Source: Candidatus Dojkabacteria bacterium HGW-Dojkabacteria-1 (GTDB lineage: Bacteria > Patescibacteriota > Dojkabacteria > SC72). Taken from it: a stretch of 64,000 bases of DNA. Positions 16,525 through 35,421 of the stretch are shown here, piece after piece; position 1 is the stretch's first letter; each line of letters opens with the position of its first letter. Location: positions 588,360-652,359 of the forward strand of contig PHAO01000001.1 of NCBI GenBank assembly GCA_002840365.1, in the 5' to 3' direction. Position numbers and translations under genes: made by a program. The notes under the pieces were generated by a model that ran no database searches, was not told the origin of the DNA, and saw only the letters and a list, made by a program, of their open reading frames with translations.

Positions 16525-17136
16525 ATGAAAAACTTCTATTTAAAAATAATCGTATTCCTCCTAATCATAATATCTGCCTATCTATCGGTAGAAACATACT
16601 ATACATATATACAAAACAAGAATTTCAAAATATTAAATCAAAGACACAGTCTAATTATTCAACTACCAAATGCAGAATATTTAGAACTGGTATCAAGAAA
16701 TGATCATGTAAGTGGTAATAACTTCTTACAAAGACCTTTCTCCTCAAACACAAAAATAATAAAAAATACTAACTTAGAGAACTCAATAGCAAGTACAAAT
16801 TCTCATACAGAATATGTTGAAAATGGAGACCTTGTTCGATTCTTAACTCTAACCCCAATTAGTAATCAATATATTAGAGTACAAGTAGATACTGAAACTA
16901 AGTATATGTTTCAGGAGAGTCTCTTTTACAATTTACAAATAGATTACACAAACAAAACAGAATTTACCTTGGGCGAAAACAGAATTGAATTTACTGATAA
17001 AGGATGTAAGGTAAGTATAGTAGGGGAGGACGTAAAATACTCATTTACAGACAATGGACAATCAGTAATTCTGAGTAAGCCATATGAGCCGAAAATGACT
17101 TTCAAATTCAATTTAAATATTGACTGTAACAATTAG
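16525..17136 (+). CDS. Hypothetical secreted protein (203 aa, N-terminal signal/TM)
   Basis: ORF with N-terminal hydrophobic segment IIVFLLIIISAYLSV. It overlaps the downstream membrane-protein gene by 17 bp. Confidence 0.4.
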   Translation: MKNFYLKIIVFLLIIISAYLSVETYYTYIQNKNFKILNQRHSLIIQLPNAEYLELVSRNDHVSGNNFLQRPFSSNTKIIKNTNLENSIASTNSHTEYVENGDLVRFLTLTPISNQYIRVQVDTETKYMFQESLFYNLQIDYTNKTEFTLGENRIEFTDKGCKVSIVGEDVKYSFTDNGQSVILSKPYEPKMTFKFNLNIDCNN

Positions 17137-19036
17137 TATGTTTGATGTAATAGCAATAATTGCAAATTTAGGAGTGATAATATATTTAATATTTTCTCTT
17201 TTTACTGGAGGATTAGACTCTTTTAGTTCGAACTACATCTTTATTGGCTATGTTGTATTTACAACTTTAACGTTACCTTTTTTAATATCAAAGAACATTT
17301 TTAGACAAAGATTAGTATCATTTACTACAGCATTTTCTTTTGTATATTTCCCTTTGCAATTTCTATTCACTTATCTTGTATCTAGAATAACTGGTTTCTC
17401 TTTAGGAGAGCTACTTCCTTTCTATACACTTTTCAATATTGTTCTTTGGAATATTCTTTTCATATATTTTATTCTCTCAGATGAAAGGAGTGGCGATTAC
17501 TCTGAGAAAGTATTAAAAAGAGTATATTCTGCAATCTTACCAGGTATTCTTTTTACAATATTTGCTTCGTTATTTATTAGGCAAACAGACTCTATCGTAG
17601 CCCTAGACTATTTGCAGCATCTTGTTGTACCAAACAGGATGTATTTTAGTGATATGCTTTGCATCCTACCTGGACAGTGCTCAAACCTTTTCCTACAACA
17701 TGGATATACAACTTTCTATCACATTCTTTTAGGAAATATGGTTTCCTTTTTAGGTACAGATCCTGTTAAAACAATTTTCGTTATTGACGTTATATATCCG
17801 ATAATTGTAAGTATTCCACTCTTTTACATTTTTAAAGATGTAACAAAAAGTACCCTCTGGTCTCAAGTTGGTGTCTTACTTTCACTACTAGTATTTGTAA
17901 TGGGAGGATATGACTTTGTATTTTTCATCCCTCAAACATTTGCATTATTCCTCTTCCTAATGTTCTATCGAGAGAAGAATCTTTCAAAAAAGAAGTTACT
18001 CCTAGCATCAATACTTTTAATGTTAACTCACTTTATCATTGGAACATATCTTAGTGCATTCTTGTGGGGTAGAGAGTTGATACTAAAACATATAGATAGG
18101 AGGAAGGAAGTAAAAATATATTATGTAATCCTTCTTACATCTGTAATATTTTTCATACTTACGAATATTGCAGGGTTTAGTTTTGAAAAACTTGTACAAG
18201 TAGATGAAGTGAAAGTAATAGGGAGTTTGACTAATCCCTACTATCCAAACAATCTAAATGTCTTTTGGCAGATACTAGGACCAATATGGCTCTTTGTATT
18301 AATAATATTTGTTACGAACTTCTTAGAAAGAAAAGTCTCAAAGGTATACTTAGAAGGGATAACATATATTGCAATGATAACAGTTGTTTACTTTTTAGGC
18401 CCTACATATGCAAGTAAATTTACAATTGGGATAGGGTTCTTTTCTGCACTTTTGCTTGTGAAATTCCTTTCTACTTTAAACATGAATATCTTCTTTAAGA
18501 GTTTTGTTGTTACTGCAATGATAGTAGTCTTTTCTACAAATTTTTTTGTTCAATACAATAGATATCTCGCCTTCTATACACAAGAAAATGGTAGAGTTTC
18601 TGCCATTAATGATGAAGATATGGCTATAGTGAACTACCTAAACAGAGAAAGAACCTTTTCTACAATACTTTCAGATCCGTATACACAGTTAATTGTTGCT
18701 GCATTTACAAATACAGAAACAGTACAAGCACAATATATGAATCTTGATACAAGAAAGAGCTTACTAGGGTATATCAATAAGCCATCGATTGAAACATACG
18801 AAAAATTAATCACCTCACCAGGCATACCAAAAAATGATAACTTTGATGTTTTGTATACATCAAGAATGTATAGGGCAATAAACAATCAAGATGATTCATG
18901 GATTTACAACCTTTACTCTCTGAGTATAAATAACTCTGAAGATATTGAGGATTTGAATGAGCAGTTGATAAAGGAAATGGCAAGAACAGGTAGGTATCCA
19001 GTATATGTTTCTCCTAATTTCATTCTTTTTAGATAG
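17120..19036 (+). CDS. Polytopic integral membrane protein (638 aa), putative GT-C-fold glycosyltransferase / glycan polymerase-like
   Basis: At least 12 predicted TM helices are followed by a ~150-aa soluble C-terminal domain. It lies immediately upstream of a GT4-GT2 glycosyltransferase. No specific motif recognised. Confidence 0.35.
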   Translation: MTVTISMFDVIAIIANLGVIIYLIFSLFTGGLDSFSSNYIFIGYVVFTTLTLPFLISKNIFRQRLVSFTTAFSFVYFPLQFLFTYLVSRITGFSLGELLPFYTLFNIVLWNILFIYFILSDERSGDYSEKVLKRVYSAILPGILFTIFASLFIRQTDSIVALDYLQHLVVPNRMYFSDMLCILPGQCSNLFLQHGYTTFYHILLGNMVSFLGTDPVKTIFVIDVIYPIIVSIPLFYIFKDVTKSTLWSQVGVLLSLLVFVMGGYDFVFFIPQTFALFLFLMFYREKNLSKKKLLLASILLMLTHFIIGTYLSAFLWGRELILKHIDRRKEVKIYYVILLTSVIFFILTNIAGFSFEKLVQVDEVKVIGSLTNPYYPNNLNVFWQILGPIWLFVLIIFVTNFLERKVSKVYLEGITYIAMITVVYFLGPTYASKFTIGIGFFSALLLVKFLSTLNMNIFFKSFVVTAMIVVFSTNFFVQYNRYLAFYTQENGRVSAINDEDMAIVNYLNRERTFSTILSDPYTQLIVAAFTNTETVQAQYMNLDTRKSLLGYINKPSIETYEKLITSPGIPKNDNFDVLYTSRMYRAINNQDDSWIYNLYSLSINNSEDIEDLNEQLIKEMARTGRYPVYVSPNFILFR

Positions 19037-19042
19037 GTATAA

Positions 19043-20986
19043 ATGGAAAGTACTAGAAAAGAAAAATACGACCTAATATCGGTATCACACTTTTTTCCGC
19101 CTAGAGTTGGTGGATTAGAGAATATGGCTTACAATCTTTTAAAGGGTCTTTCACAAAGGAACGTAAAATGTTTAGCTCTCTTTGGTAGTAACAAAAGAGA
19201 GTATGTAAAAGGCGATAACCTTGACTACCAAATATTTAAAGTATTTAGTACCTTTGGAGGCACATATCCTCTCTTTGGATTAAGATTCTTTCTTAATATA
19301 TTTAGAACATTAAAAGAGAATCCCAATTCAAAGGTAATTATCCATAGCAGACACCTCACAAGCAGTATCTTAACAGCAATTGCATGCTTACTTTTGAAAC
19401 ATCCATATACTGTAATTGAACACAATGGAGGGCCAGTATTCTTTAAGTCAGAGTTAGTTACAAGGTTAATAAACTGGGTTGATAGGAATGTTTTTGGATT
19501 AGTACTTCAATTTGCTGAAGATATCTTGGCTGTTTCTAAAACATCAAGACTTTGGATTCACAAAAATTTTGGAATATCAAAACAGAGAATAGGAGTAATA
19601 TACAACTCCTTTAATACTGCATACTATGCAAACAGAGTAAAAGAGAAAGAAAATATTGTAGTCTTTGCTAGCAAATGGATAAAGGTTAAAGATCCTCAAA
19701 CAACCTTAGATGCATATACTAAAATAGCGAACAATTTCCCTGATTGGAAATTCATGATGATAGGGGAGGGCAGTAATCTACAATTTGAAAGGAAAAGCTT
19801 ACCAGCCAATATTGAGATTCTAGAAAAATTACTAACTCAGGAAGAGCTTTTTGAGATATTAAGTAAATCTAAAATATATATTAACTCTTCTCTTAGTGAA
19901 GGTTTAGCGCTAGGTATCATTGAAGCTGTTTCTCTAGGAAATATCCCTATTCTCTCTAATGCAAAGAGTAATATTGAAATTGCAGAGATTTTAAAAACAA
20001 AAGATTTTACTTTTCAAAAGGGTAATACTAATGATTTAGTAAAAATCCTCAAGAAAGGAATCTATCTTTCAAAGGATGCAAAAAAGATTTCAGCTATAGT
20101 CTCTAAAAACAAGGAAGCCTTCTCAAGCGAACAGATGGTTGAAACATATTACAAAAGATTGCTTCCAAGACACTATGAAACTGCTCAAATGAAAATCCTT
20201 TCGATAGTAATTCCTTTTTACAATGAAGAAAACTTAATAACTGAATTGCTTAAGAAAGTCTCCGCGATTCAATTGCCTAGTGGAATATCAAAAGAAATCA
20301 TTCTCGTTGATGATGCTTCCAAGGATAATAGTAGGAACTTAGTTGAGAAATTTGTTGAAAAAGATGAGAATAACAACAAATATATCTTACTTAAAAACAC
20401 TCGTAACAAAGGAAAGTCACAAACTGTAAAGAAGGGTGTACTTGCTTCAACTGGAGAACTTGTTGTAGTTCAAGATGCAGATTTAGAGTATGAACCTGAG
20501 GATTTAGTTACTTTTGTCAATGAATTTATTACAAACCACAATATTGATTTCATATATGGTAATAGGTTTAACCAGAGAAACAAATTTACAGGAAGTATAC
20601 ATAGCTTAGGAAACAGATTTGTAACAATGGCTTCTAATATCTTTACAAAACCAAGAGGTTTTGCACCAAAAGATATGGAAACATGCTACAAGATGGTAAG
20701 AGGGGATATCATGAGATCAATTTTTAAAGGTTTAGAATCAGAGAGTAACTTCGGATTAGAACCTGAAATAACTGCAAAACTTGCAAGATATAGAAAACCT
20801 AATGGTAAAAAATTAAACTACAAGCAAATTGATATTTCATATGTACCTAGAACAATATCTCAGGGAAAGAAAATGAGATGGTTTAAGCATGGAGTAGAAG
20901 CTCTTTTAGAAATTTTTTACTTTAATTCAACACAGTTTACTGTAGAAGAGTATTTTAATGGTAAAAGAGTAAAAAGAAAGTTCTAA
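19043..20986 (+). CDS. Bifunctional glycosyltransferase: N-terminal GT4-like (Glycos_transf_1) domain fused to a C-terminal GT2 domain
   Basis: GT4 E-x7-E-like segment SEGLALGIIEAVSLGNIPI. The GT2 segment ILSIVIPFYNEENLI...VDDASKDNS...VQDADLEYEPED carries the DxD motif. Length 647 aa. Confidence 0.6.
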   Translation: MESTRKEKYDLISVSHFFPPRVGGLENMAYNLLKGLSQRNVKCLALFGSNKREYVKGDNLDYQIFKVFSTFGGTYPLFGLRFFLNIFRTLKENPNSKVIIHSRHLTSSILTAIACLLLKHPYTVIEHNGGPVFFKSELVTRLINWVDRNVFGLVLQFAEDILAVSKTSRLWIHKNFGISKQRIGVIYNSFNTAYYANRVKEKENIVVFASKWIKVKDPQTTLDAYTKIANNFPDWKFMMIGEGSNLQFERKSLPANIEILEKLLTQEELFEILSKSKIYINSSLSEGLALGIIEAVSLGNIPILSNAKSNIEIAEILKTKDFTFQKGNTNDLVKILKKGIYLSKDAKKISAIVSKNKEAFSSEQMVETYYKRLLPRHYETAQMKILSIVIPFYNEENLITELLKKVSAIQLPSGISKEIILVDDASKDNSRNLVEKFVEKDENNNKYILLKNTRNKGKSQTVKKGVLASTGELVVVQDADLEYEPEDLVTFVNEFITNHNIDFIYGNRFNQRNKFTGSIHSLGNRFVTMASNIFTKPRGFAPKDMETCYKMVRGDIMRSIFKGLESESNFGLEPEITAKLARYRKPNGKKLNYKQIDISYVPRTISQGKKMRWFKHGVEALLEIFYFNSTQFTVEEYFNGKRVKRKF

Positions 20987-21051
20987 TTTTGTTGACATAC
21001 ATTGACTCTCTGTCTAATATATAAACAGGTGTAAATTTACGTATATTACGC

Positions 21052-21534
21052 ATGGATGCTGCCCCACAAAATATGTCTTCATTAATACAAAATGATGGAG
21101 ATTTACTTCAGGAGAAATTAGATTCTTTTGTTAAAGAACTTCAAGGTCTTGGTTTAACTGCCGAACAGATAGAGACCATTATTACAAGTCTTACTGCTAC
21201 TGCAACAAAACAAACAATGGCAAAGATTAGTTCTTTAATGGACGATGAAGAATTTGAAAATTGGAAAAATTTTGTTGATACAGGTGCTAATACTGCACAA
21301 CAATTGGTCGTTTTAAACAGGCTTTTACTCAACAAAACAGACAAAGATTTAGATACCATACATATGGAAATTGTAGATGGATTGATAAAGAATACATTGA
21401 GTGATATTGCAAATATAAAAGATTTAAATCTAAAAATATCAAACCTTTCTCCAGAAGAAGTAGAAAAAGCAAAACAACTACTAGATGATGGAGATTATGA
21501 AGGAGCTGATAAGATTATAAATAAAGAGGAATAA
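21052..21534 (+). CDS. Hypothetical small acidic helical protein (160 aa)
   Basis: Preceded by a promoter-like TTGACA (20996-21001), 17-bp spacer and TAATAT. Acidic, helical composition. Confidence 0.45.
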   Translation: MDAAPQNMSSLIQNDGDLLQEKLDSFVKELQGLGLTAEQIETIITSLTATATKQTMAKISSLMDDEEFENWKNFVDTGANTAQQLVVLNRLLLNKTDKDLDTIHMEIVDGLIKNTLSDIANIKDLNLKISNLSPEEVEKAKQLLDDGDYEGADKIINKEE

Positions 21535-21558
21535 TATTATTTATATACATATACTGAA

Positions 21559-24500
21559 ATGAGTGACCTAAACACCGGAAGTGAGAAACCAACTGCAGAA
21601 AGACTTAGGGCTAGTTTGGAGAATGCAGAAAGGCAAGGATTTGGAAATTCCACAGGAACTTCCACTGATACAGTAAACCCTGCAACAGGAATAAGTGAAC
21701 AAGAACTAATTCCAAAAAGTGATTGGATGGAAGAAGCAATTAAAAATAGTAATCCTGAAAATAGTCCCAATCCCCCTTCTTTAAATACTAAAGAGAGTAC
21801 CGGTGCACAGGTAATAGCAAACCTACAAAAAGACTTACAAGCAATACAAGAAGAAGATTCCACCTTAACACCAAGACAACAGGCTGATTTAGATGTAACT
21901 GCTGCGATTGATAACGCATATCAAAATCAGGAAGTTGCGAAGGGACAAGATCAGGAAAGTACACCTCTCAAGAGTGCAGCAGAGATAGCTATGACTTCTA
22001 GTTCTCCCGAAAAAAGAGCTGGTTTAGAAAATCCAAATGGAGTACTCCTTGGCCAACAACAAGAAGAAAAGAGCAATAGTGAAGAATTAGAAAAGAAAGA
22101 GGAAACTAAACCAACTCCAAGTGACTCTACTCAGGAGACAACTCCTTTAAGAAGTGCCCAAGATATAGCTTTAAATGGGAAATTTCCAGAAAAAAGACCT
22201 AGCCAGGAATTTCCTAATGGGGTCTTAATTGGACAAGGAGGAAAAATTGAAGAGATAGGCAGTGTAAAAGATGAAACTCTCGTTGAAGTAAAAATACCAG
22301 ATGATAATTCAAAAAAGCAGGTCGTTATCGAAGACAAGAAGGCAGATTCTAAACCAGAAGAAAAACCAACAGACCCTAATATTGAATTAATTAATGCAAA
22401 CAAAGAACTTGTAGAAGCAGTTAACAAACTGATAAAGACATTAGAAGATCTTAAAACTACAAGTGCTAACGATCCTCAAATGCAATTAATAATTAAAAAT
22501 CTGCTAATTGGAGTAGGTAATATTGTTAATGCTGAAGGACAAAGTACAATTACAACAGGAGATGGCTCTATTAAGAATGAACTAAACCTTGGAGTAGGGG
22601 ATCAACCTACTACTGGAACCACCTCAACAGAAACACCACCTGCTGAAAAGAAAAAGGAAGGGGAAGAAAAAACAACTAAATTAGACGAACTAGAGAAACT
22701 AAACAAAGAAAAAGAAGAATTAGAAAAGAAATTAAATGATCCTAACACAACACCTGAAGAGAAGGAAAAGATACAAAAATCAATTACAGAAATTGAAGAA
22801 GTAATTGCAAAAACTGAAGCAGTTATAAAGATTGAACAACAACAGGCAGCAGAGAAAGTAACACAATTAACACAGGAAGATAAGAAGGAGATAGATGAAG
22901 CTGGTAAAAAGAGTGGTGGATTCTTAGCGACAATAACAAGAATGTTTAAAGGCGGTAAATGGAAGGGATTCTTAGCAAATGCAGGCCTTTCAACAGCATC
23001 AGCATTAGCTGTAAGTAAAATTGCAGGTGCAGTAATAGCAACAACAGGACCCGTAGGTATTGGACTTGTCGGTGCTGGTATGGCTGTATTAGGAGCAATT
23101 GCTCTTCGAAAAACATGGACAAACTTAAAAAATGTTTCTGAAGCACAAGGAATGACTGTTAGCGAGTTTGTTTCTAGAGACAAGAAATTTGCACTGAGTT
23201 TTGCACTTGGTAGTGCAATTTCAGCAACAACAAGATTAGGTCTTCCTGCAATCGTACCGGGTGTAGGACCAATATTACCATTCCTAGGTATGGCTACTGA
23301 AATAGCAATTTCAGGTGTAGCTGAAACCAGATTAAACAAACAACAACAAGAATTAGTAGAGAAATATCTCAATACATATGAAGCTAGAAGATACTCTAAG
23401 TTGAAAGAGGCAGGATATCTTGCAAGAGAAGGTGTTAACCTTCAAAAGATTGTTGCAGATATGACAGACAAGAATATTTCTGCAGATGAACAAAAAACTG
23501 CTCAAAAGACAGCTATTGCAGCTTTAGCATATCTTTACAATCAAACTAAGGATGAAAAATACAGATATCTTCATTACACCACTACAGAAAACGATCAGGA
23601 AGTTAAAAAGCAAATTGACATTGCTGGAATTGGTGTAAGCAAAGTAAAGGGAGATTCTCCTACAAACCCAATGCTAGAGCTTGAGGGTATAAACTTTGAA
23701 TCTATGGTAGATAAATTAGATTTAGAAGAACTAAAGACATTAACATTAGAAGCATCAACTCATAGCTCATTAACTGATAGGAAAGGATTAACAAACGAAA
23801 TAGTTGGATACTTTGTAGGTTTAGAAACAGTAGATGTAGAAAATCTCCTCTCTGCAGAAAGAGAGCAATATCTACAATCCGTTTCATTCTTAACAGGATT
23901 TAGAACAGGTGCAGCAGTTGCAAACTCTGCAATCCTAATCGGTTCGGGAGCTGCGTTGATTTACAATACAGTTAATGCTGAAATACAATCTTCATCTGCG
24001 GAACATAGGCAAGTAGAACAAGAGTACAGAGATAATCTGGGAGACAGTGATGCAGATGTTGACACATATGTAAGAGAAGATGGAACAAAAGTTAATACAA
24101 TCGATTTGGATAGAGACGATACTCCTGATTTAATTCACGATACAAGTACAAACGAATATACTGCAGTCACACCATTGGGAGCAGAGAAACTCTTTGAATT
24201 ACAAAATCCTGAAGTTGGAAACGTTACAGTAACAGAATTTGCATCAACCTCTACTGGAATAACTGGAACAATGGTTACAGATACAGGTGAGGTTGTTGGA
24301 GTAATATACAATGATCCAAGTGGAAGTATTGGGGTTCTTACTAATGCTCAATTAGGACAAGCACTTGGAGCAACTTCTGGTGGAGCTGCTACGGGCTTAA
24401 GTATTACAAATATTCAACCAAATGGTGTTACTAACCTAAATATTGGTGGACAAACATATACTACAAATCTTGCAGAACTAAGTAATATACCTGGCGCAAC

Positions 24501-26778
24501 AGGTACTGAAGGCAGTATTGGTATGGATCCATTAATGAGTAAGGTTGCAGCAGGAGATTCAGTACCAAGTATTCTTACAAAAATTATGCAACAAGCTAAA
24601 GAATACAATCCAAATCTCTCTCAATATGATGACTATGAACTACAAAGATCTCTTTACAGAGGAGATAGGCTTGGAAACGACTCCATGATTAGATCAGAAT
24701 TAGGGTTCACAAACCCTGTACAACCAAATCAAGAATACAGTTTAAGGAACTCACAAACAATATTAGGATGGTTAGAAGGACTTAATGGTGGACCAGTAAA
24801 CCTTCCAGGCGTTGGTTCTGGAACACCAGGAGCTCCTGGAACAAGTGGTATTAATTTTGCCTTTAATGGTCCAAATGTAAACGGTATTTCTCTTGATGGC
24901 CTCTCTCCATTATATGTTGAAGGTGCATATGATATTACCACTACGCACTTTGCAACTCTTGCAGGTGCAGCACTTGGAGCTTTTGCTCATCAGCAAGTTG
25001 GTGGCATTATCAAAACTGCTAAGGTAGATATATTTGAAAAAGAAGGAGAAACTAAAGAGCCAGACCCAACACCAAAACCCGTTACACCTCCAATAACTCC
25101 TGAAAAAGAAAAGGAATATATCTCTCAAATTTTAAGAACTCAAATCTTCTCATACACCAAAGAAGGAAAATTAAAAGTAAGCAATGGTACTTACACAATT
25201 GGTAGCTCTAAACTTATTGCAACTGATAGTGGATGGTTACTAAATGATAAACCTATCGGTAACGATCCTAAAGAAATAGACGAAATTATTACTGAATTCC
25301 TTAAACTAGAAAGAGAAGAACAAGCAAAAGTCTTAACAAATATACTTGAAAAGATGACTGTAATAAAGGGAAGTGGTAGAAGAGTAATGCTCTCTGATGG
25401 AGAAAACAAAGAAGGTAGTATTGTATTTAGAAAATTAAGAAATGGTAAATGGCAAGAGTTTAATGCTTTGGAAAATGAGCAGAGAAATCCTGGAACTCCA
25501 GAATCTAGAGAAATAATAACGGCAGGACAACTAGCAGACAGAATACTTCTCATACAAAGAGACGAACAGAAACAGATAGTAGGTAGTATAGTACCACCAA
25601 CAGCAAAGACTGCTGAATCTCAAGTATCATCTACCAATCAACAGGGTGAACAAACTACAAAGAACCCTGCAACACAAGCAGGAGCTACTACTCAACAAAC
25701 AGAACAGGAAGGAAAGAAAGCTAAAGAGGGTGCAAAACAAGGGATAGAAGCAAGTGCAAAGGTAGAAACAGAGAGTGCAGAAGGCAAAGAAGCCGAGAAG
25801 AAAGTTGAAAAGAACCAATTTACAACAGTAATTGGAAAAATCATGACTATGCTTCAAACCAGAGATACTCAAATTATCCTCAATGGACTAGACTATCGCT
25901 TCCAGAAACCAACAAAGTTATGGCAATTGGATAGTAAAGACAAGAAAGCAAGAAAGGATCTAACAAGAGAAGAAGTACTCTCTGCATATATTGCAAACTT
26001 TGATAAAAACAAAAAGGATGGAGTAAAGAATCTTGAAAAAGATGTAACAGTGATGCTACAAAGACTACAAGAAGATGGTACAACTCCAGGTAAGAGAGCT
26101 GATAAATTAGTTATTGGAACTACGACATATACAAGAATTAAAGGAAAAGGTGGAGAGTTAGTATGGAAAGGAAATGATAAAGAGAATCCTTCAAACAACA
26201 AAGTACTTTCAGACCAAGAGCTTTCTTCAAATATTGTAAGCTTAGGATCTCTTGAAGCTTCTGCCCAAACAAATACAGAACAAGCAGAGAAAACTACAGA
26301 GAAGAAAGAACAGGAGAAACCTGAAAAGAAAGGAAGAAAACTTCTTAAAGCAGCCCTTCTTGTAGTAGGGATAGGTGGAGGTATAGCAGCAGGATTAGCA
26401 GGCATAGGAGGCCCAGTTGCATTAGCAGCTACAGCAGCATCTCTTGGAACTTCGATAGGGAAAGGCATTACAAAATGGAGAGAATCCTCACTTAAAAAAC
26501 AGTATGATCAGGTGGCAAATACAGAAGAAGACACACAAAAACGTCAAGAATTGGAGAAGAAAATGGAAAGTGCAAGAAGATGGAGAGAGCGTATTGGTAC
26601 AATAGCTTGGTTAACAACTCCACTAGCAATATCATCAGGTTTAACTGCTCTTATGGCACCAGAGATTACTAGTGCTGGTATTGAGATAAAGTCATGGTTA
26701 GAAGGTGCATGGAATAGTATGGATGTAAATATTGATATAAACAGAATAAGGCAACCATTTAATATTGGTACTAAATAG
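21559..26778 (+). CDS. Giant hypothetical protein (1739 aa): disordered repeat-containing N-terminus, K/E-rich coiled coil, and two glycine-zipper hydrophobic (membrane-insertion-like) regions; no signal peptide
   Basis: Uninterrupted 5.2-kb ORF. Internal tandem repeat (S/T)TPL(K/R)SA..IA...PEKR...NPNGVL(L/I)GQ at aa ~135-230. Coiled coil at ~360-440. Hydrophobic Gly-rich segments GAVIATTGPVGIGLVGAGMAVLGAIAL (~aa 480-520) and LLVVGIGGGIAAGLAGIGGPVALAATAASLG (~aa 1600-1635). Confidence 0.6.
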   Translation: MSDLNTGSEKPTAERLRASLENAERQGFGNSTGTSTDTVNPATGISEQELIPKSDWMEEAIKNSNPENSPNPPSLNTKESTGAQVIANLQKDLQAIQEEDSTLTPRQQADLDVTAAIDNAYQNQEVAKGQDQESTPLKSAAEIAMTSSSPEKRAGLENPNGVLLGQQQEEKSNSEELEKKEETKPTPSDSTQETTPLRSAQDIALNGKFPEKRPSQEFPNGVLIGQGGKIEEIGSVKDETLVEVKIPDDNSKKQVVIEDKKADSKPEEKPTDPNIELINANKELVEAVNKLIKTLEDLKTTSANDPQMQLIIKNLLIGVGNIVNAEGQSTITTGDGSIKNELNLGVGDQPTTGTTSTETPPAEKKKEGEEKTTKLDELEKLNKEKEELEKKLNDPNTTPEEKEKIQKSITEIEEVIAKTEAVIKIEQQQAAEKVTQLTQEDKKEIDEAGKKSGGFLATITRMFKGGKWKGFLANAGLSTASALAVSKIAGAVIATTGPVGIGLVGAGMAVLGAIALRKTWTNLKNVSEAQGMTVSEFVSRDKKFALSFALGSAISATTRLGLPAIVPGVGPILPFLGMATEIAISGVAETRLNKQQQELVEKYLNTYEARRYSKLKEAGYLAREGVNLQKIVADMTDKNISADEQKTAQKTAIAALAYLYNQTKDEKYRYLHYTTTENDQEVKKQIDIAGIGVSKVKGDSPTNPMLELEGINFESMVDKLDLEELKTLTLEASTHSSLTDRKGLTNEIVGYFVGLETVDVENLLSAEREQYLQSVSFLTGFRTGAAVANSAILIGSGAALIYNTVNAEIQSSSAEHRQVEQEYRDNLGDSDADVDTYVREDGTKVNTIDLDRDDTPDLIHDTSTNEYTAVTPLGAEKLFELQNPEVGNVTVTEFASTSTGITGTMVTDTGEVVGVIYNDPSGSIGVLTNAQLGQALGATSGGAATGLSITNIQPNGVTNLNIGGQTYTTNLAELSNIPGATGTEGSIGMDPLMSKVAAGDSVPSILTKIMQQAKEYNPNLSQYDDYELQRSLYRGDRLGNDSMIRSELGFTNPVQPNQEYSLRNSQTILGWLEGLNGGPVNLPGVGSGTPGAPGTSGINFAFNGPNVNGISLDGLSPLYVEGAYDITTTHFATLAGAALGAFAHQQVGGIIKTAKVDIFEKEGETKEPDPTPKPVTPPITPEKEKEYISQILRTQIFSYTKEGKLKVSNGTYTIGSSKLIATDSGWLLNDKPIGNDPKEIDEIITEFLKLEREEQAKVLTNILEKMTVIKGSGRRVMLSDGENKEGSIVFRKLRNGKWQEFNALENEQRNPGTPESREIITAGQLADRILLIQRDEQKQIVGSIVPPTAKTAESQVSSTNQQGEQTTKNPATQAGATTQQTEQEGKKAKEGAKQGIEASAKVETESAEGKEAEKKVEKNQFTTVIGKIMTMLQTRDTQIILNGLDYRFQKPTKLWQLDSKDKKARKDLTREEVLSAYIANFDKNKKDGVKNLEKDVTVMLQRLQEDGTTPGKRADKLVIGTTTYTRIKGKGGELVWKGNDKENPSNNKVLSDQELSSNIVSLGSLEASAQTNTEQAEKTTEKKEQEKPEKKGRKLLKAALLVVGIGGGIAAGLAGIGGPVALAATAASLGTSIGKGITKWRESSLKKQYDQVANTEEDTQKRQELEKKMESARRWRERIGTIAWLTTPLAISSGLTALMAPEITSAGIEIKSWLEGAWNSMDVNIDINRIRQPFNIGTK

Positions 26779-26780
26779 AT

Positions 26781-27227
26781 ATGGATAAAGAGATAAAAAA
26801 CAAAATAGAAAAGCTAAAAGAAATGGGTATGGATGAAAAGAGATTACATGCATTAATTATGCTCGGTTTTGAGGATTTCCTTGATGAGGTTGAGCAGGAT
26901 TTAATTGAAGCAAGCCAATCAGACCTTGATTTACTTCTTTCTGAATTAGAAAACGCAAAATCTGAAGATATGAAATCAGAGGAAGCTGCAATTGTACTTC
27001 GTGATATGCTTAGAAAAGTATACGGTATAAATGCTGAGAACAAATGGAATACATTTCTACTTGGGTATCTTGACCAATGTGTTGAGGAAGGAGCCGCAAT
27101 TCAGGACTTCCTAGCCAAATTAAAAAACGATGATCCAGAGGCACTAAAACAAGTAATTGCAGCACAACAAGACCCTGACTTTGAAGCAGCGAAAGCTGCT
27201 GTAGAAGCAGCATCAAAACTAGAATAA
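26781..27227 (+). CDS. Hypothetical small acidic helical protein (148 aa), translationally coupled to the giant gene
   Basis: Its start lies 3 nt after the giant gene's stop. Highly acidic (D/E-rich). Confidence 0.45.
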   Translation: MDKEIKNKIEKLKEMGMDEKRLHALIMLGFEDFLDEVEQDLIEASQSDLDLLLSELENAKSEDMKSEEAAIVLRDMLRKVYGINAENKWNTFLLGYLDQCVEEGAAIQDFLAKLKNDDPEALKQVIAAQQDPDFEAAKAAVEAASKLE

Positions 27228-27229
27228 CC

Positions 27230-28660
27230 CTATTGTAGTGGATGATTCTTCTTTACAGTTTCCTCTGCAAATTGCTCACTAGCATGTACATACCTTGTTG
27301 TAGTATCTAAGCTTTCATGCCCAAGAAGGACCTGCAGTGCAGCTGGACTTGCTCCTTGCTGAGCTAAGTATGTAGCATATCCATGCCTAAGACTATGTGC
27401 AGATGTAGGTATCTGAATTCCTAATCTTCTTCTGTACTCAGCAATCTTTTCTTGAAAATAGTTAGTTGATATTCTTGCATTTGATTTTCTACTTCTTAAA
27501 CCAGACAGAGGTATGAATAGGGCAGGGGAGTCGAATTTTTTTAAGAATCCATTTTTACGATAGTTTTCAACTAGAGATATATACTTCCTATTCTCTGAAT
27601 CAAAAACTTCTAAATTTAAACCTTCAGAAACATTCTCTGTATTTGTTTCACGATGTTTCATATCTTTATCCTTTTTTTCTAAACCCAGATCATGATACAA
27701 ACTATCTACAATACCTGGTTGTTCATCTTTAACCCTATCAGAAAAGGCATACTCTAGCCTTAACTTCAAATACTTATTTATCCATCCCAGTGCCCTTGGA
27801 GTTACAAATATTGTTCTTTCTTTTTTACCCTTACCAGTAATATACATCTTACCCTCAACATTTAATTGCTCTAAATCAAGACTAATGAGCTCTGAAATAC
27901 GCATTCCTGTTGCAAAAAGAAGCTCTAACATACATCTGTTTCTAAGTGCTACCTTTTCATCCTTCTCAAATTCCATTGGGCTTTCTATTAATCTAACCAA
28001 ATCTTCAAAAGATGCTACCTTTTTTATTTTCTTTTCACCCTTAACCATACTTATCGCATCTGGAGGTAAAGGTATTTCATAGTCCCATGAGATTCTAAAC
28101 TTAAGATATGATCTTAGTGCTGAAAGCATTCTGTTTACACTTCTAACATCTAAACCATTTTCACTTCGAGCTCTAGAATTTAGAGGTCTATCAAGTATAC
28201 CCAATGAGCCGTATACCTTACTGTAGATTTTGGTTAGGAAGTCATCCTCATATACCTCGTCAGTCTCTTTGAGGTACTCATCCAGATTTTTAGATTCCTC
28301 AGAAGGTGTATTCATACCCTTTGAAATTTTCTGAGGGCTTACAGAGCCTCTGGCGGCCTCGCCTGCAACTAACCCTTTATCTAAGCCACTAATTGCATAT
28401 TCCTTCCTTATCCTATCCAAATCTTTAAGGTGATTTCCACTTCTAAGGTATCCTTTGTAGTTTGAAATGTCTTCTTTAGATACTTTAAGAAATTCAATAT
28501 TGTTGAAATGTAAATATACACCAAATATCGCTAAATCCCTTGCGTAATTAATAATGGTTTGCATACTGTAATTGTTGTTTTGCAAATCCAACAGAAACTT
28601 GTCCTGATCAGGTAGTTTAGGTATCTTCTCAAGTATTTCTTTTCTTCTTTTAATATCCAT
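27230..28660 (-). CDS. Tyrosine site-specific recombinase (phage-integrase/XerC-D family) with two large insertions
   Basis: Core-binding N-domain. Catalytic box I TGMRISEL, box II HSLRHGYATYL and the Tyr motif LGHESLDTTTRYVH. Length 476 aa versus ~300 for Xer proteins. Confidence 0.8.
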   Translation of the reverse strand: MDIKRRKEILEKIPKLPDQDKFLLDLQNNNYSMQTIINYARDLAIFGVYLHFNNIEFLKVSKEDISNYKGYLRSGNHLKDLDRIRKEYAISGLDKGLVAGEAARGSVSPQKISKGMNTPSEESKNLDEYLKETDEVYEDDFLTKIYSKVYGSLGILDRPLNSRARSENGLDVRSVNRMLSALRSYLKFRISWDYEIPLPPDAISMVKGEKKIKKVASFEDLVRLIESPMEFEKDEKVALRNRCMLELLFATGMRISELISLDLEQLNVEGKMYITGKGKKERTIFVTPRALGWINKYLKLRLEYAFSDRVKDEQPGIVDSLYHDLGLEKKDKDMKHRETNTENVSEGLNLEVFDSENRKYISLVENYRKNGFLKKFDSPALFIPLSGLRSRKSNARISTNYFQEKIAEYRRRLGIQIPTSAHSLRHGYATYLAQQGASPAALQVLLGHESLDTTTRYVHASEQFAEETVKKNHPLQ

Positions 28661-29122
28661 ATTTGTATATATTAAGCTTAAAAAATATATAAATCAAAGT
28701 AGGGGTTTTAAAATTTTTTTGAGGTATGAATAGATAGGGGTAAAAAAGAAAAAAGTAAGGAAATATTAATAGGAATACGCATTGTCATAATAAATATATT
28801 TAACATCTAATATTAATTACAAATCATAAGCCTTAAAGCTACTCCCCTGGGCCTTACATACAGAGTACCGCATATAAGGACGATTATACTCGGTTATATA
28901 TTACAGATAATCATAACATATTGCAACGGGGTATAGCAGTATACTCCTCCACCTAAATGCTCAATGAAAACAGACTTTAAGATTCATTCATATATTCCCT
29001 ATTTATTACTAACATACAGAAGAATGTTTTAGCACTTACTTATCCACACTGTTAAAACTATGGGACATGTGAAACTATGGGCTCTTTGTGACTACAGGCC
29101 CCTACCCCCTACTCTCATATAG

Positions 29123-32934: not shown

Positions 32935-35421
32935 TTACTTTTCTTCTATCTCTACCTTATACTTATGCTCCTTCTTTACCTCTTCTTTTGTATTTTTCGT
33001 ATCAGACCTATTACCCTTCTCACTGTATGCTTGATTACTCCATCTTGTAATCTTTTCTTCGATGACCTCCTTTGGAGTACCATATTTTTCTCTAGAACGA
33101 GCAACAACTTTTTCTTTTAATCCAAATGGTTCAAACCTAGGAGGAAGAGATCTAGCACTAAATGTGTTTGATGTCATTCCATCAATACACAGTTTAATAT
33201 ACATAGAGTGAGCATCTAACGAAACCAAATCTGCAGATGTAACATTCGGAGCAAATTCCTTTTCTAGTATAGAGGCATCTGCCTGACTTACAACAAATGA
33301 TCCTAGTGTACCGACATTACCAAAGATAGCTTGTCTTACAGTTAAAGGTAATTGATCTATATATTGATTAGTCATACACAAATCTAATTTAAACTTCCTT
33401 GCTTCAGAAAGAATCTTAGCAAAAGAATCCGTAGCAAAATTCTGGAACTCATCTACAAACAAGAAGAAGTCCTTTCTTTCATCGGCCGGCATATCTACTC
33501 TTTCTAATGCAGTAGATTGTAATCTTGTAATTATCATGCCTCCAAGTAGAGATGCTGTCTCTTCTCCCAATTTTCCCTGTGCAAGATTTACCAAAAGAAT
33601 TTTTCGACTATCCATTATCTCTCTTAAATCGATTGTTGATTTAACCTGCCCTACTATATTTCTAGTTACAGCGGAAGATATGAACCTACCTACCTTGTTC
33701 TGTATTGGAGAAACTGACTCTGCCAGCAATTTACTGTTTTGAGCCATTTGAGCATATTCTTCTTCCCAGAACTTTATCAATATTGGATCATCTACCTGTT
33801 TTAGTATGAATTTTCGATAGTTTCTGTCTAAAAGCATCCTAGGAACAGAAAGTAATGTTGTCCCTTGCGCTTCTAATGCTGTAGCAACTGTATTTGTAAG
33901 AATATATTGTAATCTTGGTCCCCATGAATTACCAAATTGCTTCTTAAATACCTCTACAACACCATCGGCAATCAGATCTCTTTGAGACTTATCTTTAAGT
34001 TCCAAAAGATTAAACCCTATTGGATATGAAGTGTCAGTAGGATTAAAGTATATTACATCCTCTATTCTCTCAGGGGGTATAAAGTCTAAAAGCTCATCAA
34101 CTGTTTCCCCGTGAGGGTCAACTAAACATGCTCCATCTCCACGTAAGATATCTGAAATGAACATATTCTTAAATACTGTAGACTTACCTACACCAGTCTT
34201 ACCAAGGATATAGAAATGCTTTCTCCTATCTTCTCTCTTTATACCAAAATCTATCCTATTACCACGATAATCAGTTTCAGCAAATACAGTAACACCATCA
34301 GTACCTGATTTAGGAATATTCATAGGTGGTTCAAGTTTTTTTGACCTACTCCATGCAATATTAGGTGTTTCAACTGAGATATTTGGCATATGATACAAAG
34401 ATGCTAACTCTTCAATATTAAGAATATCTATAATCTCTGATGAGAGATATCTTTTAAGGTAATCATTGTAAATATCCTGACCTGATTTTGTAGGAGTAGA
34501 ATGTATAAATGTATTTAGGTGTGCAGTTGTAAACTGTTTAAAACTCGCCACTATATCTCTTAAAATCTGCTCTGACTCTATTTGAGTTGGTGCTTTGGTA
34601 ACAACCCTAATACCGAACTCAAAACCTAATTTAAGCATTTTGTTCTCTATCTCAGACAGCTCTTCTTCCTGCCCAGGCTCTAACTTAACAACTTCCTTTC
34701 TCTGAGGTTCACTCTCACTACCCATATTTGAGAGATTAGAACCTATATCTGAGAGAAGAGCAGCAAGCTTATCCAAGAAACTCTCACCATATGGATTTTT
34801 TCCCTCCCTTATCGCAGTAATATATTTCTTTGAACTACTTTGCCAATAGTTTGAAACTGGTCTAACAATAATTTGTACCCATGCATACTGACCAATTTTT
34901 AAATCAGAAATTGCACCAGTAATAGCAGCAAGAGGGTCTACTTCAAAATTTCTAAATGTTTTGATGGGGAATATACAATCTTTTTCGAACTCTACCTCTC
35001 CTGTTGTTACAAAGAGCTTCATATCACTGTTTTTTTTCTGGGTATAGTCAGGTACATACCTAATATCAGCATTAGGATACTGTGCATATATTTGTCCCTC
35101 AACAAACTTTGCTAAGTGTTGAGGTATTACAACAAAAAACTTTATACCATCCTCTCCACTTGAAGCTATCTCAAAACTAATAATATCAAAAGATTTTACA
35201 GAATCTCCTAAGATTCCGTGTATAGAGGCGAACATTTGTTCCGCAGCAAGCGGAGTCCTATCATTTTCTCTAGGTACTAATATCTGCATTACTAAGGGGT
35301 TACGAACCTCTTGTAATATTTCAAGTTTCTGTTCACCTTTGTTATTCACAAAAACAAACAAAAAAAGAACAAAGGCTAATGCGAGTATTAAAAGTAAACC
35401 TATTACTGTGACCATTATCAT
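32935..35421 (-). CDS. Membrane-anchored TraD/TraG/VirD4-type (type IV coupling protein-like, DUF87/T4SS-DNA_transf) P-loop ATPase
   Basis: N-terminal TM MIMVTVIGLLLILALAFVLFLFVFV. Walker A YILGKTGVGKST. A DPHGE motif follows (LVDPHGET). Walker B FLFVDEFQNF. Length 828 aa. No other T4SS genes are nearby. Confidence 0.5.
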   Translation of the reverse strand: MIMVTVIGLLLILALAFVLFLFVFVNNKGEQKLEILQEVRNPLVMQILVPRENDRTPLAAEQMFASIHGILGDSVKSFDIISFEIASSGEDGIKFFVVIPQHLAKFVEGQIYAQYPNADIRYVPDYTQKKNSDMKLFVTTGEVEFEKDCIFPIKTFRNFEVDPLAAITGAISDLKIGQYAWVQIIVRPVSNYWQSSSKKYITAIREGKNPYGESFLDKLAALLSDIGSNLSNMGSESEPQRKEVVKLEPGQEEELSEIENKMLKLGFEFGIRVVTKAPTQIESEQILRDIVASFKQFTTAHLNTFIHSTPTKSGQDIYNDYLKRYLSSEIIDILNIEELASLYHMPNISVETPNIAWSRSKKLEPPMNIPKSGTDGVTVFAETDYRGNRIDFGIKREDRRKHFYILGKTGVGKSTVFKNMFISDILRGDGACLVDPHGETVDELLDFIPPERIEDVIYFNPTDTSYPIGFNLLELKDKSQRDLIADGVVEVFKKQFGNSWGPRLQYILTNTVATALEAQGTTLLSVPRMLLDRNYRKFILKQVDDPILIKFWEEEYAQMAQNSKLLAESVSPIQNKVGRFISSAVTRNIVGQVKSTIDLREIMDSRKILLVNLAQGKLGEETASLLGGMIITRLQSTALERVDMPADERKDFFLFVDEFQNFATDSFAKILSEARKFKLDLCMTNQYIDQLPLTVRQAIFGNVGTLGSFVVSQADASILEKEFAPNVTSADLVSLDAHSMYIKLCIDGMTSNTFSARSLPPRFEPFGLKEKVVARSREKYGTPKEVIEEKITRWSNQAYSEKGNRSDTKNTKEEVKKEHKYKVEIEEK

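Follow-up and report, generated by a model that had tools for sequence, protein, structure and literature searches.

The subject of this report is a four-gene locus at positions 21052 to 28660 of a 64-kb window, by which we mean the whole stretch of DNA analysed (64,000 nucleotides of contig PHAO01000001.1), from the genome of Candidatus Dojkabacteria bacterium HGW-Dojkabacteria-1. A gene for a protein of 1739 amino acids (aa), here called the giant protein, lies between the genes for two small acidic proteins of 160 and 148 aa, and this trio is followed by a convergent gene for a tyrosine recombinase and a non-coding gap. Judged by spacing, promoter, co-occurrence and synteny, the three genes are a real, vertically inherited operon restricted to Dojkabacteria. 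An earlier note on this DNA had listed these open reading frames (ORFs) and the gap, and the ORFs are exactly as it described. The four genes below are defined by their ORFs.

20992-21020, plus strand: promoter-like site of the sigma-70 type (TTGACA, 17 nt, TAATAT), ~30 nt 5′ of the 160-aa gene
21052-21534, plus strand: 160-aa gene, first gene of the operon, for an acidic soluble protein and candidate cytoplasmic partner
21559-26778, plus strand: giant gene, for a predicted polytopic membrane protein of 1739 aa and 188 kDa
26781-27227, plus strand: 148-aa gene, for an acidic soluble protein and candidate second partner
27230-28660, minus strand: gene for a Xer-type tyrosine recombinase of 476 aa, a neighbouring, separate module
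28661-29122: non-coding stretch of 462 bp after the recombinase gene

The 160-aa and giant genes are separated by 24 nt, and the giant stop and the start of the 148-aa gene by 2 nt, one fewer than the 3 nt previously given. The promoter-like site is the top consensus match of the region (10/12), and both TTGACA and the -10 element are kept in loci L001, L002, L006, and L011 (alignment A11). This conserved TTGACA-17-TAATAT is promoter-like and may serve as the promoter of the operon. At the other end, the stops of the 148-aa gene (plus strand) and the convergent recombinase gene xer (minus strand) lie 2 nt apart (27225-27232), which leaves no space for terminators between the two, and no terminator-like hairpin was found at these positions.

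A hypothetical protein of Candidatus Dojkabacteria bacterium HGW-Dojkabacteria-1, CVU76_03165, has the same sequence as the giant protein (100% identity). A word-indexed search recovered five homologues at 47-100% identity, and 18 clusters were recovered when a profile of residues 450-1345 was run exhaustively with HMMER against 1.84 billion representatives. Bar fragments and one FG-GAP protein matching a single motif, these clusters consist of proteins of 989-2028 aa, the most distant of which show 22-25% identity in the core. Named members of the family are all Dojkabacteria hypothetical proteins. A scan of GTDB gave six loci, four titled Candidatus Dojkabacteria and two titled ‘uncultured Candidatus Saccharibacteria’.

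The trio is present in L001-L004, L005, L007, and L011, and carries consecutive locus tags in another metagenome-assembled genome. Around it a recurring order is seen, consisting of glycosyltransferase genes, the 160-aa, giant, and 148-aa genes, (xer), a 275-aa membrane gene, ruvB, ruvA, ruvC, yebC, and a gene for an ATPase resembling type IV coupling proteins (T4CP). This order is kept in relatives at 78%, 47%, and ~33% identity, and L001-L007, L009, and L011 all show the trio and its flanks in collinear order, with identities as low as 33%. L011 lacks the recombinase and retains the trio and the remaining order, which indicates that the recombinase is not part of the unit. The distant giant family member P0018 directly adjoins a convergent gene for a 538-aa tyrosine recombinase (L015 11160-12776), and the pairing of giant and xer genes therefore appears old. 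The earlier note had set its effector module against the possibility of a conserved chromosomal gene with a known domain architecture; the giant gene is a conserved, syntenic chromosomal gene, and a known domain architecture was not found for it.

The same data bear on the suggestion of a mobile or accessory locus. One could suppose that the block is the cargo of an integrated mobile element or prophage remnant, with the giant as a tape-measure-like protein and the tyrosine recombinase as its integrase: the recombinase and the non-coding stretch adjoin the block, and tape-measure proteins can be very long with Gly-rich hydrophobic segments. Against this, the gene context is identical in genomes down to 33% identity, the block is not variably present among the related genomes examined, and a search of 20.5-29.6 kb for flanking direct repeats of the attachment (att) type gave only short, imperfect repeats at chance level. 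Its composition is ordinary, with a GC content of 0.362 compared with 0.334-0.338 in the flanks and 0.344 in the window. Relatives were absent from IMG/VR, the INPHARED phages, and the PLSDB plasmids, PHROG and BFVD gave no match, and the surroundings of the block hold no capsid, tail, or terminase genes. The recombinase itself, offered as the sign of mobility, scores best as XerD/XerC, adjoins a dif-like site, and is missing from L011 where the trio is present. A mobile origin is thus already largely refuted and has, in our estimate, almost no chance of being correct.

The two neighbours of the giant protein are both acidic and hydrophilic, as had been proposed, with isoelectric points of 4.30 (160 aa) and 4.39 (148 aa) and grand averages of hydropathy of -0.39 and -0.40, respectively. 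No significant similarity exists between them. The 160-aa protein is 74-95% identical in close relatives. In L013 and L014, the most distant loci, a homologue still directly precedes the giant gene and shares the motif W..FVD.G.N..QQ. The 148-aa protein is 36-95% identical in relatives and is kept across a wider set of loci than the 160-aa protein, with 148-aa-like ORFs in the same place (convergent with xer) in ~30 metagenome loci. The families comprise 37 and 28 clusters, respectively, and in both every cluster with an organism name is from Dojkabacteria. Furthermore, the small proteins evolve more slowly than their large neighbour, at 79% and 66% identity vs 47% for the giant in the same genome pair. 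The earlier view of them as chaperones or partners holds in part: their co-conservation with the giant makes partners plausible, but they fall in no known chaperone family such as TPR class II or WXG100, and their best matches, to TrpR and HEAT, are non-significant. The TrpR-like match of the 160-aa family (E 0.02-0.1) was set aside as too weak to use. From these sequences it is plausible that the small acidic proteins are partners or assembly factors of the giant protein.

The giant protein can be divided into domains on the basis of alignment, hydropathy, and charge, with putative transmembrane helices numbered TM1 to TM8.

21946-22236, plus strand: two copies of a ~35-45-aa tandem repeat (TPLxSAxxIA...PEKR...FPNGVLxGQ), residues ~130-226, predicted cytoplasmic
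22906-23328, plus strand: amphipathic lead-in (GFxATIxRxFKGxxWK) and two Gly/Ala-rich helical hairpins (TM1-2, TM3-4), residues 450-590
23329-23895, plus strand: ~190-aa alpha/beta domain, residues 591-779, predicted cytoplasmic
23896-23976, plus strand: TM5, residues 780-806 (hydropathy 783-805), at the end of a predicted 73-residue helix (residues 289-361 of the AlphaFold2 model)
23977-24813, plus strand: putative ectodomain, acidic and K/R-poor, with a beta-rich part and a helical part, residues 807-1085
24103-24129, plus strand: FG-GAP-like Ca-binding loop DLDRDDTPD, with D849, D851, and D857 invariant in the family
24937-25011, plus strand: short Gly/Ala-rich hydrophobic segment, residues 1127-1151, possible TM6 that would lead the chain back into the cytoplasm
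25111-26253, plus strand: two alpha/beta domains, C1 (1185-1345) and C2 (1420-1565), with a low-complexity linker between them, predicted cytoplasmic
26341-26463, plus strand: C-terminal glycine-zipper helical hairpin (TM7-8), residues 1595-1635, flanked by K/R clusters

The N-terminal part runs from a variable N-terminus through the two tandem repeats, a conserved helical/beta motif, and a K/E-rich segment to the lead-in and hairpins. In the middle, region 807-1085 is followed by a G/S/P linker, the possible TM6, and a P/T/E linker that leads to C1 and C2, and the C-terminal part consists of a K/E linker after C2, the zipper hairpin, a helix, a last hydrophobic segment, and a 37-aa tail. The protein contains no cysteine. 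Both the K/E-rich segment, a putative coiled coil, and the internal tandem repeat are real features, as had been noted; residues ~131-165 align with 191-225 at a Smith-Waterman score of 107 vs 26 ± 5 for shuffled sequences (z=16), and the repeat is kept in 5/5 close homologues. Self-BLAST of the giant protein gave the identity match only, and no significant internal duplication relates C1 to C2 or the N-terminal to the C-terminal hairpins.

Hydrophobic Gly/Ala-rich segments were found by hydropathy at residues 471-519, 544-590, 783-805, 1592-1634, and 1681-1700, of which the first (its part at 481-519) and the fourth are the two regions first singled out. No such stretch occurs in the first 470 residues, which bears out the reported absence of a signal peptide. 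The description of glycine zippers applies to the C-terminal hairpin, where hydropathy reaches a maximum of 2.1 and a strict GxxxGxxxG is present (GIGGGIAAG at 1604), and fails for the first stretch, which is only rich in small-xxx-small; runs of the latter kind begin at residues 478, 482, 1606, and 1624. The lead-in and hairpins (450-590) rank with the most strongly conserved parts of the family. Hairpin 1 is flanked on both sides by K/R clusters, and the net charge over residues 450-519 is +9. The domain at 591-779 is 62-63% identical where overall identity is 47-49%; it is K/R-rich (24 K+R), as are C1 and C2 (25 and 26 K+R), and no fold match was found for it. Residues 1127-1151 lie below the hydropathy threshold and are conserved across the family on inspection of the homologue sequences.

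From hydropathy, charge, and the positive-inside rule we infer that the giant protein is a resident polytopic membrane protein that is not secreted, with ~1,100 residues in the cytoplasm and residues 807-1085 outside. Hairpins 1 and 4 carry K/R clusters at either end, which would put both of their ends on the cytoplasmic side. The putative ectodomain has a net charge of -21 and as few as 1 K+R per 100 residues, vs 17-26 in the putative cytoplasmic parts. A cytoplasmic C-terminus also fits the distant member P0022 (L013, 1640-7219), which ends in an FHA domain (Pfam E 1e-17), a cytoplasmic module.

This topology weighs on the idea that the giant is a secreted or host-inserted translocator or pore-forming effector, in which the glycine-zipper segments would enter a target membrane and the small acidic proteins would act as export chaperones. 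Small acidic hydrophilic neighbours (148-160 aa, pI 4.3-4.4) co-conserved with the giant are what such a system would bring, as are Gly/Ala-rich hairpins in a protein lacking a signal peptide; a T4CP-like ATPase is encoded 6 kb away, and CPR bacteria (those of the Candidate Phyla Radiation) are considered host-dwelling. But the protein has between five and nine hydrophobic segments distributed along 1,250 residues, whose K/R-rich flanks are typical of a resident polytopic protein, and the terminal FHA domain of the distant member is a cytoplasmic signalling module. No secretion apparatus genes adjoin the trio at this locus, and ruvBAC and yebC lie between the ATPase and the trio. The gene is single-copy, always occupies the same chromosomal position, and shows none of the variability that effectors usually have, and no similarity to translocators, toxins, or known chaperone families was found. 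The likeness to translocators, tape-measure proteins, and toxins raised by the earlier note likewise gains no supporting family or fold match in PHROG, PADLOC, PDB, or BFVD. The effector reading fits the gene layout only; it is not supported, and we rate it very unlikely. A protein anchored at the surface as part of an S-layer or by sortase finds no counterpart either, as the giant protein has no LPxTG-like motif, no SLH or other Pfam anchoring domain, and no hydrophobic N-terminus.

That nothing at the locus matches a nameable family is borne out for all three genes. Pfam, NCBIfam, PHROG, and PADLOC gave nothing significant for the giant or either small protein, and neither did PDB sequence searches and profile searches with four alignments. 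An AlphaFold2 (AF2) model of residues 450-1345 (896 residues, built on 13 sequences) has a mean predicted local distance difference test (pLDDT) score of 68.7, with 80-90 in three soluble parts, ~80 in C1, and ~55-82 in the domain at 591-779. Four helices of low confidence (pLDDT 31-71) cover residues 450-590, a short low-confidence helix falls on residues 1127-1151, and the ectodomain is modelled as small alpha+beta modules. Foldseek with this model found no match in PDB (best E 0.28) or among the viral structures of BFVD (best E 0.03, probability ≤0.23). The negative Foldseek and PDB profile searches leave the giant family without a known family or fold. Searching the literature for giant Patescibacteria proteins, and consulting a preprint on the CPR type IV secretion system (T4SS), yielded no description of it.

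The DxDxDxxxD loop is the sole part of the giant protein that touches known families. Its aspartates are invariant in alignment A9 (numbered D46, D48, and D54 there), and in a one-by-one Pfam scan of ectodomains 7/17 family members gave sub-threshold matches to FG-GAP or FG-GAP_3, with a best E of 0.006-0.022. The FG-GAP protein P0021 and CRTAC1 match the giant family at this loop motif only. A few other candidates were tried and dropped: residues ~990-1060 looked LysM-like by eye, which neither profile scan nor model supported; a PP2C-like C-terminus of P0018, also seen by eye, had no Pfam support; and the JGI name ‘Arc/MetJ family transcription regulator’ carried by several members of the P0014 cluster, again without Pfam support, is probably an automatic mis-annotation.

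Beyond the giant family, sister lineages carry a shorter protein at this place. Among the ~30 metagenome loci with a 148-aa-like gene convergent to xer, four have a protein with the giant core. Elsewhere the next gene encodes a protein of 660-900 aa whose N-terminus is disordered and which has a K/E-rich region and just one Gly/Ala hairpin, flanked by K/R (for example L016:6492-8702, L020:7220-9889, and L027:2638-4704, all on the minus strand). These shorter proteins have no Pfam match. Their hairpin module aligns with the C-terminal hairpin of the giant in hhalign at a probability of 86% and E 5e-6, a kind of score that membrane and low-complexity segments inflate. From this comparison, the minimal conserved pair may consist of the hairpin protein and the 148-aa protein, and the giant may represent an enlarged form.

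Next to the operon, the recombinase gene and the gap after it most likely represent the cell's own Xer recombinase with its dif site, a chromosome-dimer-resolution module rather than an integrase, judging by the sequence matches that follow. The recombinase matches Pfam Phage_integrase (E 5e-32), and its top NCBIfam matches are XerD (1.7e-49), XerC (5.6e-48), and XerA (2.3e-39), all of them below the equivalog cut-offs (168.7 vs 329.6 bits) because of its insertions. Two such insertions, which are lineage-specific and had already been remarked on, occupy ~residues 75-164 and 311-385 relative to the Xer and Pfam models. The putative catalytic R, K, HxxR, H, and Y motifs (GMR, GKGKKER, HSLRH, LGH, RYVH) were picked out by eye against XerD motifs. 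The gap has the length first described (460 bp, here 462 bp) but is only slightly AT-rich, with a GC content of 0.314 vs 0.344 for the window, and it is conserved across relatives in length and in blocks of sequence. It holds two features.

28867-28894, minus strand: candidate dif site ACCGAGTATAA-TCGTCC-TTATATGCGGT, 28 bp, an 11-6-11 imperfect palindrome
28695-29116, minus strand: conserved element of ~395-430 bp around the dif-like site, bounded by the inverted repeat GAGAGTAGGGG / CCCCTACTTTG

The arms of the candidate dif site are 9/11 symmetric, and 18/28 of its positions (16/17 in the inner 17 bp) are identical to the oligonucleotide of the validated Pyrococcus abyssi dif site used in XerA assays (Cortez et al., 2010; PMC2958812). 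It was found once within the 64-kb window of the 734-kb contig. A metagenome scan with the arm pattern returned 69 loci in which the spacer varies (TCNNNN), the invariance of the arms being partly by construction, since the scanned arm parts were fixed by the search pattern. A xer homologue begins ~225 nt (range ~150-250 nt) downstream of the dif-like site in 43/49 loci with enough flank, and the 275-aa gene ends ~230-330 nt upstream of it in 44/46 loci. At ~27-29 kb gene orientation becomes convergent and the sign of the GC skew switches, which fits a replication terminus and does not prove one; the site probably marks the terminus.

The module has much in common with the single-recombinase Xer/dif modules XerS/difSL of streptococci, XerA/dif of archaea, and XerH/difH, in that its recombinase best matches Xer models. 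With the archaeal XerA/dif it shares a 28-bp site, 11-bp inverted arms, a 6-bp spacer, and the 18/28 identity given above. The position of the xer gene directly beside its site is the arrangement described for XerS/difSL (PMC5357621), and inverted repeats flank the site here as they do in Thermococcales dif (PMC2958812). Unlike known Xer systems, the recombinase is 476 aa long, has two insertions, and falls below every NCBIfam equivalog cut-off, and unlike known sites the candidate dif lies within a conserved element of ~395-430 bp.

This element holds two CCYATAGT repeats and an invariant TGTGGATAA, and it is kept without the recombinase in L011. A structured RNA was considered, and the apparent helices seen with five or six sequences shrank to a few invariant pairs at 47 sequences; Rfam gave no match at gathering score or at E≤1. 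As almost no covariation remained across the 47 sequences and Rfam gave no match, the non-coding RNA reading was dropped in favor of a DNA site. A replication origin, suggested by the invariant TGTGGATAA as a DnaA-box 9-mer, was also rejected, there being one box only and the skew having the polarity of a terminus.

The constancy of this neighbourhood invites another explanation of the trio, namely that it forms a membrane complex of the division site or chromosome terminus, tied to Xer/dif, RuvABC, and the FtsK/HerA-type ATPase, which might for example anchor or time dimer resolution at the septum. In ~30 Dojkabacteria-type loci a 148-aa-like gene and a Gly-hairpin protein gene are convergent to xer beside dif, the 275-aa gene, and ruvB; the 828-aa TrwB/FtsK/HerA-like ATPase is syntenic as well; and one distant member bears the FHA domain, a module common in division and cell-wall regulators. 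Yet adjacency may only mirror conserved gene order, the genes are convergent and not co-transcribed, and L011 has the trio without xer. The giant protein, moreover, has no DNA-binding or divisome domain in Pfam or NCBIfam. We regard such a role as unlikely.

The account that we prefer is of a Dojkabacteria operon for a giant envelope-spanning scaffold with two cytoplasmic partners, beside a separate Xer/dif module, and taken as a whole it stands at about an even chance. In this account, the Gly/Ala-rich helical hairpins would hold the giant protein in the membrane of the cell that produces it. The N-terminal repeats, the K/E-rich segment, the 190-aa alpha/beta domain, and the two C-terminal alpha/beta domains would lie inside the cell, while the acidic ectodomain of ~280 residues, beginning with the FG-GAP-like Ca-binding loop, would be exposed between TM5 and the short TM6. 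The giant could then serve as a scaffold or tether that connects something at the surface of the cell, be it wall, surface layer, or host, with proteins in the cytoplasm. The two small acidic proteins would be its partners on the cytoplasmic side, or else factors for its assembly.

Several points weigh against this account. Neither experiment nor homology bears on function. What the data show directly is the gene structure, the conservation, co-occurrence, and synteny of the genes, and the lack of a known family or fold; the topology, surface exposure, partner binding, and scaffold role are deduced. The topology is based on hydropathy and the positive-inside rule only, and AF2 confidence is low in the membrane parts. 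The possible TM6 is weak, being below the hydropathy threshold and of low pLDDT, and C1 and C2 would be extracellular if residues 1127-1151 do not cross the membrane. For the ectodomain no fold match reached significance, which makes surface binding a conjecture. Conserved order in small, slowly rearranging genomes is no proof of functional linkage, and since a 660-900-aa protein replaces the giant in many sister lineages, not all of the class has the large core. For the neighbouring module, the terminus is deduced from 64 kb only, over which skew cannot be separated from gene strand.

The hairpins could also be read as a channel or transporter, in which zipper hairpins oligomerise to a pore in the cell's own membrane for host-derived molecules and the ectodomain acts as gate or receptor. 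Glycine-zipper packing motifs are reported to be typical of the helices of homo-oligomeric channels (Kim et al., 2005, PNAS), the hairpins and lead-in helix are among the best conserved parts, and sister lineages retain the hairpin module alone. Nevertheless, no similarity to a transporter or channel family or fold was found, the AF2 model has low confidence and shows no bundle, and the conserved mass consists mostly of soluble domains that a simple pore would not need. A channel is therefore an improbable answer in our view. More ambitiously, the trio might be the core of a new envelope-spanning apparatus of Dojkabacteria, with a Ca-binding ectodomain that touches the host or surface, the hairpins as an oligomeric conduit or membrane-shaping anchor, and the acidic proteins as adaptors. 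Such an apparatus would be a new organelle for episymbiont attachment or exchange, unrelated to type IV pili or T4SS; we hold it to be a long shot.

Compared with known systems, the scaffold proposed for the giant protein has partial likenesses. Its C-terminal hairpin, with GxxxGxxxG, and its short K/R-flanked Gly/Ala hairpins in general resemble glycine-zipper two-helix anchors (Pfam ‘Glycine zipper 2TM’, Gly-zipper_Omp/YMGG), but there is no Pfam match at E≤0.1, and here the hairpins sit inside a multidomain protein of 1739 aa. The layout of small acidic, large membrane, and small acidic proteins, with co-conserved partners, resembles translocator-plus-chaperone sets and the pairing of EsaA with WXG100 proteins in the type VII secretion system, while no apparatus genes lie nearby and no similarity in sequence or fold exists. 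In the 160-aa protein the motif is W..FVD rather than WXG, and a YxxxD-like C-terminal motif is not kept in distant members. Phage tape-measure proteins share its length, low-complexity or helical stretches, and Gly-rich hydrophobic segments; in contrast to them, the giant keeps a fixed position on the chromosome, lies outside any phage context, and matches nothing in PHROG or BFVD. Finally, the DxDxDxxxD loop that opens the ectodomain, with its invariant aspartates, is like that of FG-GAP/integrin-type repeats, but it is a single loop without a seven-bladed propeller, and all its Pfam matches are sub-threshold.

CPR bacteria account for a large share of bacterial diversity, and how they build their envelopes and contact their hosts is largely unknown. 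Orphan families and orphan membrane proteins are common in their genomes, and the newness of the trio is limited to the lack of a matched family or fold, no new mechanism being shown. As a conserved, lineage-restricted set of three proteins with a domain map and a testable topology, the trio offers a concrete target in Dojkabacteria. The dif-like site, which resembles the archaeal XerA site and lies beside an insertion-bearing xer, would provide a replication-terminus marker for Dojkabacteria genomes and would extend the single-module Xer/dif arrangement to CPR.

The genes around the locus add some further observations. Ahead of the operon, 16525-20986 (plus strand) encodes a 203-aa protein, a 638-aa polytopic membrane protein without a family match, and a 647-aa GT4-GT2 fusion glycosyltransferase, and these are kept together with the operon in close relatives. 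Genes for a sortase, VanY, and a LytR_C protein likewise lie nearby, which along with the glycosyltransferase suggests a cell-envelope neighbourhood. On the other side, 32935-35421 (minus strand) encodes the 828-aa ATPase, which is membrane-anchored and of the TrwB/VirD4/HerA-FtsK type, with DUF8128 in homologues. It is syntenic with yebC-ruvCAB, the dif-like site, and xer, has no adjoining virB4, and may be a coupling protein or an FtsK-like translocase for Xer/dif. Farther away, the 935-aa GyrA (8083-10890, plus strand) matches Pfam DNA_topoisoIV in two separate stretches, and this split match hints at an insertion in its N-terminal domain of the kind often seen in CPR proteins.

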